Notes: generated by a model from the sequence alone, not told the origin. A stretch of DNA of 40,135 nt from a virus (IMGVR_UViG_2547132278_000018), one strand, 5' to 3'; positions 1,930-38,413 are shown, counted from the stretch's first letter. A program made the numbers and translations.

Positions 1930-1975
1930 ATTCGTAATGCGAAGGTCGTAGGTTCGACTCCTATTATCGGCACCA
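1930..1975 (+). other. tRNA-Thr (thrW) 3' fragment, 46 nt, ending CCA - phage att core, not an intact tRNA
   Basis: ATTCGTAATGCGAAGGTCGTAGGTTCGACTCCTATTATCGGCACCA matches the anticodon-loop-to-CCA portion of E. coli thrW from memory; upstream 30 nt do not match the tRNA 5' half. Confidence 0.8.
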
Positions 1976-1989
1976 TTTAAATCAATAAG

Positions 1990-3153
1990 TTACACATCAT
2001 TAGTACCTTCCTTATTTTTTGACTGGGACAAATTTGGGACCGATGGGTTCAGGATCGAGTCTATTTGCCGTGCGTGTTCGGTAAGGTGATTAGGTGCAAG
2101 GTGAGCATATCGACGAACCATTTCGATAGACTCCCAACCTCCCATTTCCTGTAACACTGACAACGGGACTCCGGCTTGAACCAGCCAACTTGCCCAGGTG
2201 TGTCTCAAGTCGTGAAATCTGAAATCATCAATATCAGCCCGTCTCAGCGCCGCTTTCCAGGCTGTGTTTGCGTCATACCGCATCTTCCTTACTGTTGGCG
2301 CTTTCGTTCCGTCTGGTTTGGTACAGCTTTCCTTGTACACAAATACCCAACGGTGATGATTCCCGATTTGTTTTTTCAATACGCGACATGCAGTATCATT
2401 CAGCGCAACGCCAATTGCGCGGTTTGATTTACTCTCTTCCGGGTTTATCCATGCCACCCGGCGCTGCATATCTATTTGTTGCCATTCAAGGTTGATGATG
2501 TTCGAGCGTCTTAAGCCTGTTGCCAGTGCAAATTCAACAACAGACTTTAATGGCTCCGGACATTCATCAATCAGCCTTTGTGCTTCATGGGGCTCCAGCC
2601 AGCGGATCCGTTTATTCTTTGGTTGAGGCACTTTAATAATTGGTGCCTTATCCAGCATTTTCCATTCACGCTCTGCGGCTCTTAGTAGGGCCTTTATAAA
2701 TGAAAGATGCGTAGCCTTCGTTGCAACGGACGCTGGTTTTGGCGTGTATTCTGGAACAGGTTTCCCTTTTTTTCTGCATGCTTCTGCCCTGAGTTTCCAG
2801 TTTTCCTCATGACGCCGGTTTGTCATTTTCTGCATTGCTGAATAAATTTTTGATTCAGTAATGTCTCTTAGTTGCATTCCTGCGAAATGTTGAAGCCAGA
2901 ATCCGATCCGGCTTTTGTCATCGTCCAGTGATTTTTTATGTGCTTTCTCTTCAAGCCACCTGACACACGCTTCCTCGAACGTTATATCAGGTATTTCACC
3001 AAGTTTGCTGACCCGCCATGCTTCAGCCTTTAGCTTGTCATGGAGTTCTGTCGCCTGCCTTTTGTCCTTTGTTCCAAGAGACTGTTTAAATCTTTTACCG
3101 TTCGGCAATGTGAAACTGGCGTACCATATTTCACCTCTGCGGAAGAGTGACAT
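1990..3153 (-). CDS. int: P22-type phage integrase
   Basis: 387 aa starting [31 protein letters not shown]...; closely resembles phage P22 Int as recalled; C-terminus abuts the thrW core. Confidence 0.93.
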
Positions 3154-3380
3154 TTTCTTTCCTCTGTTATGCCATCACCCGCGCTCACCTGGACAGTATG
3201 CAGCGGAGACTGAAGAGCCGCAATGCAGGCTTGTCGTGTTGTGAGGTAAGGAGATTTATTCTTAGTGGGATCTTTGCGTGTTGCCTGAAGACGCCCCGTG
3301 CGTATCCAGTTAATGGCAGTCGGTCTGGATATCTTGAGAAAATGACAGGCCTCATCGAGTGTGAGGCTGTATGGCTCCAT
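3030..3380 (-). CDS. xis: Excisionase (P22 Xis-like)
   Basis: Start taken at internal Met [38 protein letters not shown] (116 aa); the track's upstream extension is probably not translated. 3' end overlaps int in another frame. Confidence 0.8.
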
Positions 3381-3685
3381 TATTTCACCTCTTGTTGTGA
3401 CATTGTTGAAAAATGGATACCTGCTCGTTGCTGCCAGACGATCCAACCGAGAGTCATATCCCATGCCATGTATTCGTTATCGCCGTTTTTTGCTCTCCGA
3501 CGATCTACTAAGTCACCGAAACGCTTTTCCATGAATAATTCATAAGCTTCGCGTTCATCTGGTTCTACTTCCAGAGATAGGAGTGCGATTTCATAAGTAC
3601 GGCGCTCAATATCGTCTCGCACGTCAAGGCTGCTGATACGCTCTTTAATTTCTTTAATCAGTTCTTTGTCGGTAAAAGTGGTCAT
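3380..3685 (-). CDS. Hypothetical early-left (ea-type) protein
   Basis: 101-aa acidic ORF, GGAGG about 10 nt upstream, start/stop overlap with neighbours (operon packing). Confidence 0.6.
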   Translation of the reverse strand: MTTFTDKELIKEIKERISSLDVRDDIERRTYEIALLSLEVEPDEREAYELFMEKRFGDLVDRRRAKNGDNEYMAWDMTLGWIVWQQRAGIHFSTMSQQEVK

Positions 3686-4047
3686 TATGCTCCAGCCTCC
3701 GGTGCTTTTGGCATTACTGCCCAGTGAGTGATATTGACGTTTTCAAGGTCCCCTACCTGAAATGTCCACTGCCATTCTCCGGTTTCTTTTTGTCCCCAGG
3801 TGTACCAGAGAGAACGCCAGCCAATTAGCCAGCCTTCTCCGTTAGCATCGAATAACAAAACACTTTCATTTGCTGGTGGCAGTTCAGTTGACACTGGTAT
3901 TACTTTGTTTTCCTGTGCTGCACATTTAGCTTCAAGCGCATCGAATTTACGCACCAGGTATTCAGCATCTGTTTCATTCACTTTCAGATCTCGCGGTACA
4001 CATCTCCCACGAAGAAACCCTTCCATTTCGAAAACATTCATGCGCAT
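3685..4047 (-). CDS. Hypothetical early-left protein
   Basis: 120-aa ORF with RBS; W-rich; tightly coupled to flanking genes. Confidence 0.6.
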   Translation of the reverse strand: MRMNVFEMEGFLRGRCVPRDLKVNETDAEYLVRKFDALEAKCAAQENKVIPVSTELPPANESVLLFDANGEGWLIGWRSLWYTWGQKETGEWQWTFQVGDLENVNITHWAVMPKAPEAGA

Positions 4048-4574
4048 TTGCGTAACTCCGATAACTCGTTAAAGCGTTCCATAAACATCCCGTAGGCATG
4101 GCCCGGTGCCAGTGGAATCACGTTGAACATCTCTGTTGCCGGGATACCTTCCAGTACAGGCCAGAAAGAGCCATCATCAAGCCCGAGATCGCGGCGTTCG
4201 GTTGCCAGCATGATGAGATCGGCATATTTCACGGGCGTACTCATAACTGGGGGTAACCTGTATTTCTCACGGATTACGGCGTCTATTTTTTCTTCCATTT
4301 GTTTATAGTCAGGAAGAAGGCGTTTCAGTGGTGCGGGAATGTCCTGACAATACGCTTCTGTTGCATCATGCATTAACGCTTCGAAAGCAAACTCCTGCGG
4401 TACCAGCTGGCTGCAAAGCACCGCATGTTGGGCGACGCTGTAGAAGTGTGAAAGATGCCCTGCAAAGCGACAGATATTTGAGAGGGAAACTGCGATATCG
4501 TTAATCACGATGTCGTCTTTATTTATCCTGTCATAATAAAAATGCTTCCCGGAAAAAGTTTTAATAAATGACAT
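4038..4574 (-). CDS. HD-domain phosphohydrolase (YfdR-like 5'-deoxynucleotidase)
   Basis: Start chosen at MSFIKTF with GGAGA RBS; H..H and HD motifs (SVAQHAVLCSQ, LMHDATEAY). Family from recall. Confidence 0.7.
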   Translation of the reverse strand: MSFIKTFSGKHFYYDRINKDDIVINDIAVSLSNICRFAGHLSHFYSVAQHAVLCSQLVPQEFAFEALMHDATEAYCQDIPAPLKRLLPDYKQMEEKIDAVIREKYRLPPVMSTPVKYADLIMLATERRDLGLDDGSFWPVLEGIPATEMFNVIPLAPGHAYGMFMERFNELSELRKCA

Positions 4575-36784: not shown

Positions 36785-37339
36785 ATGCTTATTGGCTATG
36801 TACGTGTGTCAACAAATTACCAGAACACAGATCTACAACGTAATGCGCTGAACTGTGCAGGATGTGAGCTGATTTTTGAAGACAAGATAAGCGGTACAAA
36901 GTCCGACAGACCAGGACTGAAAAAGCTGCTCAGGACATTATCGGCAGGTGACACGCTGGTGGTCTGGAAACTGGACCGACTGGGGCGCAGTATGCGGCAT
37001 CTTGTCGTGCTGGTGGAGGAGTTGCGCGAACGAGGCATCAACTTTCGTAGTCTGACGGATTCAATTGATACCAGTACCCCAATGGGGCGCTTTTTCTTTC
37101 ATGTGATGGGTGCCCTGGCTGAAATGGAGCGTGAACTGATTGTTGAACGAACAAAAGCTGGACTGGAAGCAGCTCGCGCACAGGGACGAATTGGTGGACG
37201 TCGCCCCAAACTTACACCAGAACAATGGGAGCAGGCCGGACGATTAATTGCATCAGGCGTTCCTCGCCAGAAGGTGGCGATCATCTATGATGTTGGTATA
37301 TCGACACTGTATAAGAAGTTTCCGGTCGGAGATAAATGA
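36785..37339 (+). CDS. Serine DNA invertase (Pin/Gin/Hin family)
   Basis: 184 aa; MLIGYVRVSTNYQNTDLQ catalytic Ser region and C-terminal HTH. Confidence 0.93.
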   Translation: MLIGYVRVSTNYQNTDLQRNALNCAGCELIFEDKISGTKSDRPGLKKLLRTLSAGDTLVVWKLDRLGRSMRHLVVLVEELRERGINFRSLTDSIDTSTPMGRFFFHVMGALAEMERELIVERTKAGLEAARAQGRIGGRRPKLTPEQWEQAGRLIASGVPRQKVAIIYDVGISTLYKKFPVGDK

Positions 37340-37340
37340 A

Positions 37341-37382
37341 ACCGTAGCACGTCGTATGCAAGAAGATCGTGCTGCGGTTTAT
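37341..37382. terminator. Putative bidirectional terminator between convergent invertase and GIY-YIG genes
   Basis: Imperfect 11-bp inverted repeat ACCGTAGCACG / CGTGCTGCGGT; weak U-tracts. Confidence 0.35.
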
Positions 37383-37399
37383 GCTTATCACTTAAAGAC

Positions 37400-38173
37400 T
37401 CAAAAATTAGGTGAGTAACGGACCGGGGACATAGCTCCTTTTTTTCTTAATTCATCTGGTATTTTTTTTCCAAGATAAAGATTTGCTATTTCAGGTGGGG
37501 CTTCTCGACCTTCAAAACCATAGCGAGAACTTTGTGTTGCCTCAAAGTCCGGATCCTCGTCCCAGTATTTCATCGTAGGGAAATTTTCACGTGTTGATTT
37601 GAGCCATTTATCAGCAATGAAAACCCCTCGAACGATCCCCCTTACAGTAGCAAGAATGACTTCTGCTTGGCTGGCGCGAGAGACATTAATGCGCCAGCTA
37701 AATCGAACCGCATCATAAAGCTCTGAATCCTTTGCACTTCTGTTAACGGAAATCATTAATGCTTTATGATGAAATGTTATGGTTTCGGGTTGATATGTTG
37801 CTATCAACTCTTTGACATGCGCGGCGCCGAATTCATTGCTGCCAGCACCATTCATGATATTCGTTAACCCAGGGTAGGCATCAATAAGTGCTGCTTCGAC
37901 TTCGTACGCCGTCTTTTCATCAGTCATTCCGTGTCGATGGATGACATGGATAACCTCAAGTCCTGCTAACCTTATTTCTCTAATTTGCTTTAGCTTGTTG
38001 CTCAGTAACTCGTCATCATCGGTCGCTGCCACTTCACCGCGCATATGGGCAAATACGCGGTTACCTTTGCCTTTCCCTACATAGAAGGTGCTTCCGTCCC
38101 TAGGATCAATCAATCGGTATACATACCAGCCAAGGTGTTCAATTACTCCAGAAGGAAACTCAGTAATATCCAT
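37400..38173 (-). CDS. GIY-YIG nuclease-domain protein with about 170-aa C-terminal domain of unknown function
   Basis: Start at MDITEF (an upstream TTG gives 274 aa); GIY-YIG-like motif [28 protein letters not shown]. Confidence 0.7.
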
Positions 38174-38352
38174 TTTGCAATATCTGTGAATTATTTGTGA
38201 GACGTATATTAATGAACATTGCAAGGGCTCACAACTAGTAGTGTTGAGAAAGCCATCGGGAAAATGAGGCTAACCCTTTGAATTTACATAGCGCAAAAAG
38301 ATACCTTTCCTCATAATGTGAGCTAATTTTATGTTTCGTTTGATGATCGGGT

Positions 38353-38413
38353 CGGTCTCGAAAACCGGAGTAGGGGCAACTCTACCGGGGGTTCAAATCC
38401 CCCTCTCTCCGCC
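38353..38413 (+). other. tRNA-Ser (serU-type) 3' fragment, about 61 nt, ending CCA - att-core-like repeat, not an intact tRNA
   Basis: GGTCTCGAAAACCGGAGTAGGGGCAACTCTACCGGGGGTTCAAATCCCCCTCTCTCCGCCA matches the serU 3' portion from memory; upstream does not match the tRNA 5' half. Confidence 0.8.

Follow-up and report, generated by a model that had tools for sequence, protein, structure and literature searches.

A fossil serU attachment junction in a probably thrW-bounded prophage

The stretch analysed here, referred to as the window, comprises 40,135 nucleotides (nt) of IMGVR_UViG_2547132278_000018. It holds a prophage of the SfV/Sp1 family that we read as a thrW/thrW element carrying, as cargo near its right end, the fossil attR of a serU-integrated ancestor from the same phage family; we put the probability of this reading at roughly 0.85. 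An earlier note on this DNA had described a thrW 3' fragment adjoining int at the left end and a serU-type 3' fragment past the GIY-YIG gene at the right end, and both are borne out. The 3' end of tRNA thrW occupies 1930-1975 (+ strand) with 46 of 46 positions identical (core, ATTCGTAATGCGAAGGTCGTAGGTTCGACTCCTATTATCGGCACCA), and the int gene (1990-3153, - strand) begins 15 nt to its right. The serU match starts 180 nt beyond the GIY-YIG gene and covers 62 of 62 positions of the 3' end of the 90-nt serU gene; it ends at 38414, one base beyond the 38413 given before. The junction to which the serU piece belongs has three parts:

38174-38352, + strand: phage-side arm of the fossil serU attR, homologous without interruption to the attR arm that the MB15 prophage has at the real serU locus
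38353-38414, + strand: 62-nt serU 3' core, the core of the fossil attR
38415-38692, + strand: 278 nt of native serU-yodB intergenic DNA, captured with attR and also matching MB15

As the earlier note had supposed, the serU piece is not an intact tRNA gene. ARAGORN calls no tRNA there, Rfam returns only sub-threshold hits (tRNA-Sec at 27.5 bits, against a gathering score of 47), and the 28 nt upstream of the core are unrelated to tRNA serU. A working or phage-borne tRNA was therefore rejected as an identity for this fragment, which supplies only the 3' 62 nt of a 90-nt cloverleaf. SerU-LTIIb, a lambdoid prophage, has an attR to which 38353-38692 is 97.4% identical, with the same 62-nt core followed by the same 278-nt spacer toward yodB, and all serU loci match the window at least up to 38470.

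The phage side of the junction was assigned by comparison with complete E. coli genomes, of which 5,426 were available. A chimeric query that joined the GIY-YIG gene, the core and the yodB flank found three genomes (MB15, BS15R-A and RMDEC332) with exactly that order at the real serU locus. Two perfect 62-nt cores enclose the MB15 prophage, the left one in intact serU and the right one in attR, which yodB-zinT-msrQP follow; the right end of the prophage reads pin, GIY-YIG, core, yodB, and its 328-residue integrase is of another type than that of the window. The two elements belong to one phage family and are homologous from 3694 to 38692 (82-98% identity in blocks), a span that includes the phage arm, the identical 62-nt core and the 278 nt of host flank, whereas the int/xis module (1976-3693) and everything to the right of 38692 differ. 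Because the match to the MB15 arm, core and flank lies inside a prophage bounded by thrW cores, we conclude that 38174-38692 is the fossil attR of a serU-integrated ancestor. To this extent the earlier proposal that the right arm came from a serU-integrated element stands; the chromosomal rearrangement between thrW and serU that was proposed with it does not.

MB15 and SerU-LTIIb have a serU-type integrase (Int), two serU cores and, after attR, the real chromosome (yodB, zinT). Of the three marks of a serU-integrated prophage, namely two direct serU cores, a serU-type Int and flanking genes of the serU locus (mtfA / yodB), MB15 shows every one. The window has a single serU core, its native flank ends after 278 nt, and no serU-type Int was found in it; a second, serU-specific integrase was accordingly rejected as a candidate for the window. 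The hybrid attR, made of arm, core and native flank, sits inside the phage's own att boundaries: 38174-38692 lies between thrW cores in the relatives, and such a junction is also found inside free phage genomes.

The MB15 prophage, collinear elsewhere, shows little or no homology to two segments of the window, 12847-16539 (late regulation and lysis) and 26599-29499 (tape measure); these are ordinary module replacements within the family.

The right end of the prophage probably lies just beyond the window

The left boundary of the prophage is marked by the following feature:

1930-1977, + strand: thrW 3' core with 46 nt from the tRNA and 2 nt more, matched by attR as a 48-nt direct repeat; an upstream island has it as distal repeat, and the SfV-type prophage reuses it as attL

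The earlier note had seen no second thrW copy near the right end, and a search of both strands of the window for a further 46-nt or 25-nt thrW core, with up to three mismatches allowed, was likewise negative (0 matches in 100 shuffles). This is true of the window and not of the locus. The right edge of the window (40135) falls inside an insertion sequence (IS) fragment, and positions past it are given as window-equivalent coordinates taken from relatives. Our main reference relative is a prophage in the enterotoxigenic E. coli (ETEC) isolate L5_E1779 (NZ_LR883006.1), which is 100% identical to the window over 1930-4201 and 99.991% identical over 17350-40135, the two mismatches (30993 and 32586) both falling in tail genes. 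This genome has a perfect 46-nt thrW core at 40495-40540, which is 360-405 nt past the last base of the window and about 2.08 kilobases (kb) to the right of the serU piece. A second core therefore lies, in the relatives, essentially within the 2 kb of the right end where the earlier note had said that a copy would speak against its view.

The DNA that leads up to this second core in the relatives consists of the remainder of a partial ISEc48 (to ~40218), a 151-nt spacer and a 125-nt SfV-type attP arm (40370-40494). In SfV and SfIV the core is preceded by an attP arm to which these 125 nt are 95-97% identical, so the second core is part of a genuine attR with a phage-derived arm. It is followed in NZ_LR883006.1 by a fragment of yagP (LysR) and then paoDCBA, yagU, ykgJ and ecp, as is normal for the flank of the thrW locus. 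This core and 1930-1977 make up a 48-nt direct repeat that delimits an element of 38,611 nt. The junction of partial ISEc48, spacer and thrW core is found in at least 321 complete E. coli genomes, and the curated annotation of O157:H7 Sakai draws its prophage Sp1 from thrW to exactly the second core, including ECs_0285 (GIY-YIG), ECs_0287 (AraC) and partial ISEc48; the P4-like Sp2 begins at the base after that core. With a second thrW core past the window edge in relatives, the ends of the prophage are most probably concordant (thrW/thrW), and their apparent discordance would be a window-edge effect.

This result bears on both explanations that the earlier note had offered. The first is an inversion or translocation mediated by prophages at thrW and serU, after which the right end would now border the serU neighborhood. 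It would account for the match of 3694-38692, attR core and host flank included, to the MB15 serU prophage, and for the lack of a second thrW core in the window. However, the serU flank amounts to just 278 nt and stops at an IS630 scar, the near-identical ETEC prophage continues through the AraC gene, partial ISEc48, the SfV phage arm and the thrW core into yagP'-paoDCBA-yagU-ecp, and both free phages and prophages at lambda att have the same block of core, flank and AraC gene. We give such a rearrangement almost no credence.

The second explanation is that the GIY-YIG/serU block is a separate degraded element and that the true attR was deleted in the source strain, for example by a flanking IS. 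IS remnants do lie at the right end (IS630 and ISEc48), an IS21-family element lies at the left, strain-specific events exist, as the left side differs from that of the ETEC relative, and a 300-nt deletion in the ISEc48 region is seen in MS 69-1 and TW10598. Against this, the DNA between prophage body and block holds no thrW core, and the GIY-YIG gene is contiguous with pin and the tail fibers in every relative, the serU-integrated one included; there are only two mismatches to the ETEC genome, the match runs to the last base of the window, and the 321 genomes above retain the attR core. A deletion or a separate element is accordingly very improbable. On sequence comparison, both explanations are contradicted by the relatives and stay open only in the formal sense that the DNA past 40135 is unread.

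A 64-kb record of strain MS 69-1 labelled as a plasmid (NZ_CP146678.1, "plasmid unnamed3") was considered as an excised circle that might display attP and was rejected, as it carries the chromosomal pao and ecp genes in chromosomal order. It holds the prophage late region together with paoABCD, yagU and ecp, a block that is also present on the chromosome of the same strain, and probably represents a misassembly or a segmental duplication, not a plasmid.

A cassette shared between unrelated phage backbones

The DNA between the captured serU flank and the right end of the window contains three features:

38693-38748, + strand: IS630-family terminal remnant of ~55 nt, matching the 3' terminus of an IS630-family copy; the breakpoint between serU flank and AraC DNA
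38997-39740, + strand: AraC-family regulator, protein identical to Sakai Sp1 ECs_0287, in AT-rich DNA (35% GC)
39745-40135, - strand: partial ISEc48 (IS3 family), cut by the window end; it extends to ~40218 in relatives and is annotated as a repeat_region in Sakai

The native serU flank diverges at 38692|38693, and the AraC gene is bracketed by IS scars, that of IS630 on its left and that of ISEc48 on its right. The gene occurs in ~825 of the 5,426 genomes, at thrW and, in two further loci that were fetched, at the lambda att (bio) site. Core, flank and AraC gene occur together in 523 genomes, 413 of which also have the GIY-YIG arm. No genome joins full serU to the AraC DNA, as judged with a chimeric query of serU, flank and AraC gene whose top matches start ~9 nt before the core; an origin of the AraC gene as a native of the serU locus was thus rejected.

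ECs_0287 is the only AraC-type gene in Sakai Sp1. We take OI-8, CP-933H and Sp1 to be the same element and z0321 to be ECs_0287. The cluster names do not mention PatE. On the strength of its sequence match the AraC regulator of the window is probably PatE (z0321, OI-8/CP-933H), which a review (PMC10877973) describes as an AraC-like activator of acid resistance and repressor of the enterocyte effacement locus (LEE) in enterohemorrhagic E. coli (EHEC), encoded by z0321 on OI-8.

The segment 38352-40218, a 1.87-kb cassette of core, flank, AraC gene and partial ISEc48, recurs at ~99% identity in two free lambda-type phages, ev099 and mEp332, and in prophages at lambda att on the bioA side; phage PhiR70_1 matches it over 38352-39780 only. 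The region between the tail-fiber end and attP is the classical slot for morons. In the annotated carriers the cassette lies between the tail-fiber assembly gene (tfa) and the phage attachment end (attP-int), which in ev099 and mEp332 is the b-region slot; in ev099 the cassette is followed by the phage's own int-xis, and related prophages are found beside bioA. The thrW core is absent from both fetched stretches of ev099 and mEp332. Unlike the window, these phages have a lambda-type backbone, and a lambdoid serU arm replaces the GIY-YIG arm: in ev099 and the bioA-side prophage L010 the serU core is preceded by a 116-nt lambdoid serU arm, 95% identical to that of SerU-LTIIb. Homology between the window and the lambda-type carriers starts exactly at the first base of the core (38352|38353), and the breakpoint between flank and IS630 remnant and the right boundary (40218) are common to both backbones.

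An observation on the cargo comes from ETEC TW10598, where a thrW remnant (L009, positions 1-8300) keeps only the right end of the prophage: two copies of pinE, bits of tail fiber, PD-T4-3 (the GIY-YIG gene, see below), the fossil attR and the AraC gene. The remnant adjoins an Avs2 (AVAST type 2) defense gene. As only the right end is kept here, att-proximal cargo outlives the phage.

Proposed history of the fossil junction

From the structure, boundaries and homologies set out above we infer an order and mechanism of capture, IS joining and int-module exchange. A serU-sited ancestor, or else a lambdoid phage integrated there, may have left the chromosome imprecisely, in the manner of lambda-bio, or may have recombined there, and would have taken with it the right junction (attR) and some host spacer while losing the serU-type int/xis. 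Events involving IS630 and the IS3-family element ISEc48 would then have joined a patE-like AraC gene to the captured flank. The present thrW specificity would have come with an attP-int-xis module of SfV type, and in the ev099-type phages the carriers' own module would have restored integration. The cassette would since have moved between unrelated phage backbones, with its left-hand crossover exactly at the serU core. The identical internal breakpoints, taken together with two different left arms, are best fitted by a single capture and a later exchange at the 62-nt core, which could have proceeded through serU Int or through homology.

Lambda-bio transducing phages offer a close parallel, as they likewise hold a hybrid attR and adjacent host DNA in a phage genome without the int/xis that made the junction. 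In contrast to lambda-bio, the event in the window is an old fossil, fixed in hundreds of genomes, integration has been regained through a different int/attP, and imprecise excision is here deduced from the product and not observed.

Several points weigh against our reading. Packaging of the cassette is seen only for the lambda-type carriers recorded as free-phage genomes. The present sequences do not separate imprecise excision, recombination between co-resident prophages and IS-mediated joining as routes of capture, and one cassette with two phage arms requires at least one extra exchange at the core. In addition, the DNA beyond base 40135 is deduced from relatives and not read in the source genome, and the left flank of the window is unlike that of the ETEC relative.

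Another account keeps the same structure and gives its junction a different origin. Here a serU-specific Int would have joined a resident cassette of core, flank and AraC gene, its fossil core serving as a secondary attB, to an MB15-type attP, with no independent imprecise excision of the phage with the Mu-like tail. Several observations point this way: the homology with the lambda-type carriers begins exactly at base one of the core, genuine serU attR sites are found with either kind of phage arm, and the two backbones agree in the flank|AraC breakpoint and in the right boundary, an agreement that argues for one capture and subsequent arm swapping. Homologous recombination within 62 identical bases would, however, give the same boundary, and an action of serU Int on the fossil site is hypothetical. 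We consider this origin of the junction a credible one, with somewhat less than an even chance of being right.

A further step would be that the fossil attR works as a secondary site of attachment or crossover, portable and still used by the serU-specific integrases of co-infecting phages. A site that is still active would fit the breakpoint that two backbones show at base one of the core; we nevertheless think such activity improbable. If it were real, it would provide for arm swaps between Mu-like-tail SfV/Sp1 backbones and lambda backbones and would also move the patE-like cassette among phages of thrW, lambda att and serU.

In our preferred reading, a thrW/thrW prophage with a fossil serU attR as cargo, the junction is a familiar kind of mosaic scar and an instance of ordinary phage mosaicism. 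No description of a fossil serU attR appeared in the titles or abstracts of the papers retrieved on serU, thrW and prophages, a shallow check that is no proof of absence. The analysis removes a false lead, as a prophage-driven genome rearrangement between thrW and serU finds no support and the window most likely just stops short of attR; the thrW/serU finding opens no new biological question. It does provide an example of a change of integration site, in which an old attR and a sliver of host DNA were kept as a scar beside an IS-added regulator and a new int/attP module, in a cassette shared among phage types. It is also relevant to the calling of prophage boundaries, as tRNA fragments inside prophages can mislead att prediction, and to tracing the spread of patE-like regulators.

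The prophage body and its known relatives

The window holds a complete temperate prophage of the SfV/Sp1 family, ~38.6 kb in length with a lambda-like early region. Its integration module and body have the following features:

1990-3153, - strand: SfV/P22-type tyrosine integrase of the thrW-specific family (Pfam Phage_integrase, E-value 1e-47)
3030-3380, - strand: excisionase, a helix-turn-helix protein, annotated in a 100%-identical stretch of NZ_LR883006.1 and matching SfV xis
3694-37339: prophage body with early region, lysis, P27-type terminase, HK97-type head, Mu-like contractile tail, invertible tail-fiber segment and pin; shared with the MB15 serU prophage
34769-36727: invertible segment with the tail-fiber C-terminus and tfa, ~1.9 kb, between 24-nt inverted repeats (34769-34792 and 36704-36727, 88% complementary), beside pin
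36785-37339, + strand: pin, a Pin-type invertase
37400-38173, - strand: GIY-YIG (LEM-3-like) gene for the predicted anti-phage defense protein PD-T4-3, the last phage gene before the fossil serU junction

The annotation of NZ_LR883006.1 names the same modules: P27-type terminase, HK97-type head, Mu-like contractile tail and an invertible tail-fiber segment with pinE, then the LEM-3-like GIY-YIG gene, the AraC gene and a truncated IS3-family transposase. Parts of the invertible segment are in the opposite orientation in MS 69-1 and TW10598. The GIY-YIG protein is matched by the PADLOC profile PD-T4-3 (PDLC04031, E-value 2.4e-140, residues 1-256 of 257) and by Pfam PF22945 LEM-3_GIY-YIG, and by this profile match the gene is assigned to the single-gene anti-phage defense system PD-T4-3. 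Whether the phage is integrated at thrW or at serU, no other gene stands between this one and the att-proximal cargo.

The DNA of core, int and xis (1930-3400, 1,471 nt) is 98.7-99.5% identical to the Shigella phages SfIV, SfV and SfII, 97.3% identical to SfI over 1,451 nt, and, in its int-xis part, ~80% identical to P22; homology with SfV, SfIV, SfII and SfI begins exactly at 1930. These Shigella phages share with the window int-xis and the 46-nt thrW attP core (97-99.5%), the attP arm, the architecture of Mu-like tail and HK97-type head, and genome size. The Shigella serotype-converting phages (SfI, SfII, SfIV, SfV and SfX) carry, between tail fibers and attP, a gtrA/gtrB/gtr(type) cassette for O-antigen glucosylation, whereas no homology to the gtr region of SfV or SfIV was found in the window. 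The slot that holds gtrABV in SfV is here taken by pin, PD-T4-3, the fossil serU attR, the AraC gene and partial ISEc48. The element is thus a member of the SfV family by its int/att and morphogenesis modules, minus the gtr cassette that defines the serotype-converting phages.

Its best-known counterpart is Sakai Sp1 (presumably CP-933H, or O-island 8 of EDL933), which lies at the same locus, thrW, and has the same right end of tail fiber, invertible segment, pinE, GIY-YIG gene, serU fragment, AraC gene, partial ISEc48 and second thrW core. Sp1 is a 10.6-kb deletion remnant with a pseudogenized int, placed directly at intact thrW, whereas the window element is full-length (~38.6 kb), has all morphogenesis genes and sits in the distal core of another island. 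It is a full-length relative of Sakai Sp1/CP-933H, an element whose boundaries are already annotated in Sakai.

The upstream thrW island

To the left of the prophage the window contains the end of an older thrW genomic island:

1-374, - strand: IS21-family element (IS100-like istA N-terminus, ~95% identity), cut by the window start and adjoining the 3' side of the island integrase
443-1765, - strand: integrase of the upstream thrW genomic island (Pfam Arm-DNA-bind_3 and Phage_integrase), the last gene before the island's distal thrW repeat

ARAGORN calls an 80-nt tRNA-Thr (cgt) at 1896-1975, which we reject as an artefact because the 30 nt 5' of 1930 have no relation to tRNA thrW; thrW accounts for no more than the 3' 46 nt of the call, and its 5' part comes from unrelated DNA of the island. 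Such a call could mislead automatic annotation of att sites or tRNA genes. The left core is a bare 3' fragment, and not a whole tRNA, because it is the distal repeat of the older thrW island. The prophage is in tandem with this island, whose distal core serves as its attachment site. In ETEC L5_E1779, by contrast, the left side reads proA, intact thrW and then int, where the window has the island integrase and the IS21-family element instead.

The exact island integrase protein was found on contigs in 1,406 blocks, and its gene always has the thrW core next to it, toward the prophage in the window; yagP'-pao follows the core directly in two loci (L019 and L025), and further elements follow it in other genomes. 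The arrangement of intF-ptwF in the CP4-6 element of K-12 is, we assume, the same as that of the island integrase and distal thrW repeat. The thrW island is widespread, and in relatives it carries type I restriction-modification, UvrD and Zorya genes, as a defense island. The junction of island integrase, core and SfV-type int recurs in five genomes.

The IS21-family element occupies a place that in relatives is held by genes for a 272-residue protein, UvrD and a type I restriction-modification system. Window positions 230-374 match istA regions of the IS100 family, and homology to the island begins at 349. The junction between the IS21 element and the island integrase (window 230-470) is present in 0 of the 5,426 genomes and therefore reflects a private IS event in the island of the source strain; none of the matches listed for the island integrase (10 places of the 1,406 blocks) has it either.

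Strain EC596 (CP156718.1, L023) has, directly after the island integrase, a short remnant of a prophage with the SfV-type int between two thrW cores (2296-9836). A resolvase/pin fragment lies near its distal core, neither a GIY-YIG nor an AraC gene is among its called genes, and the same tandem array seems to have decayed here along another path.

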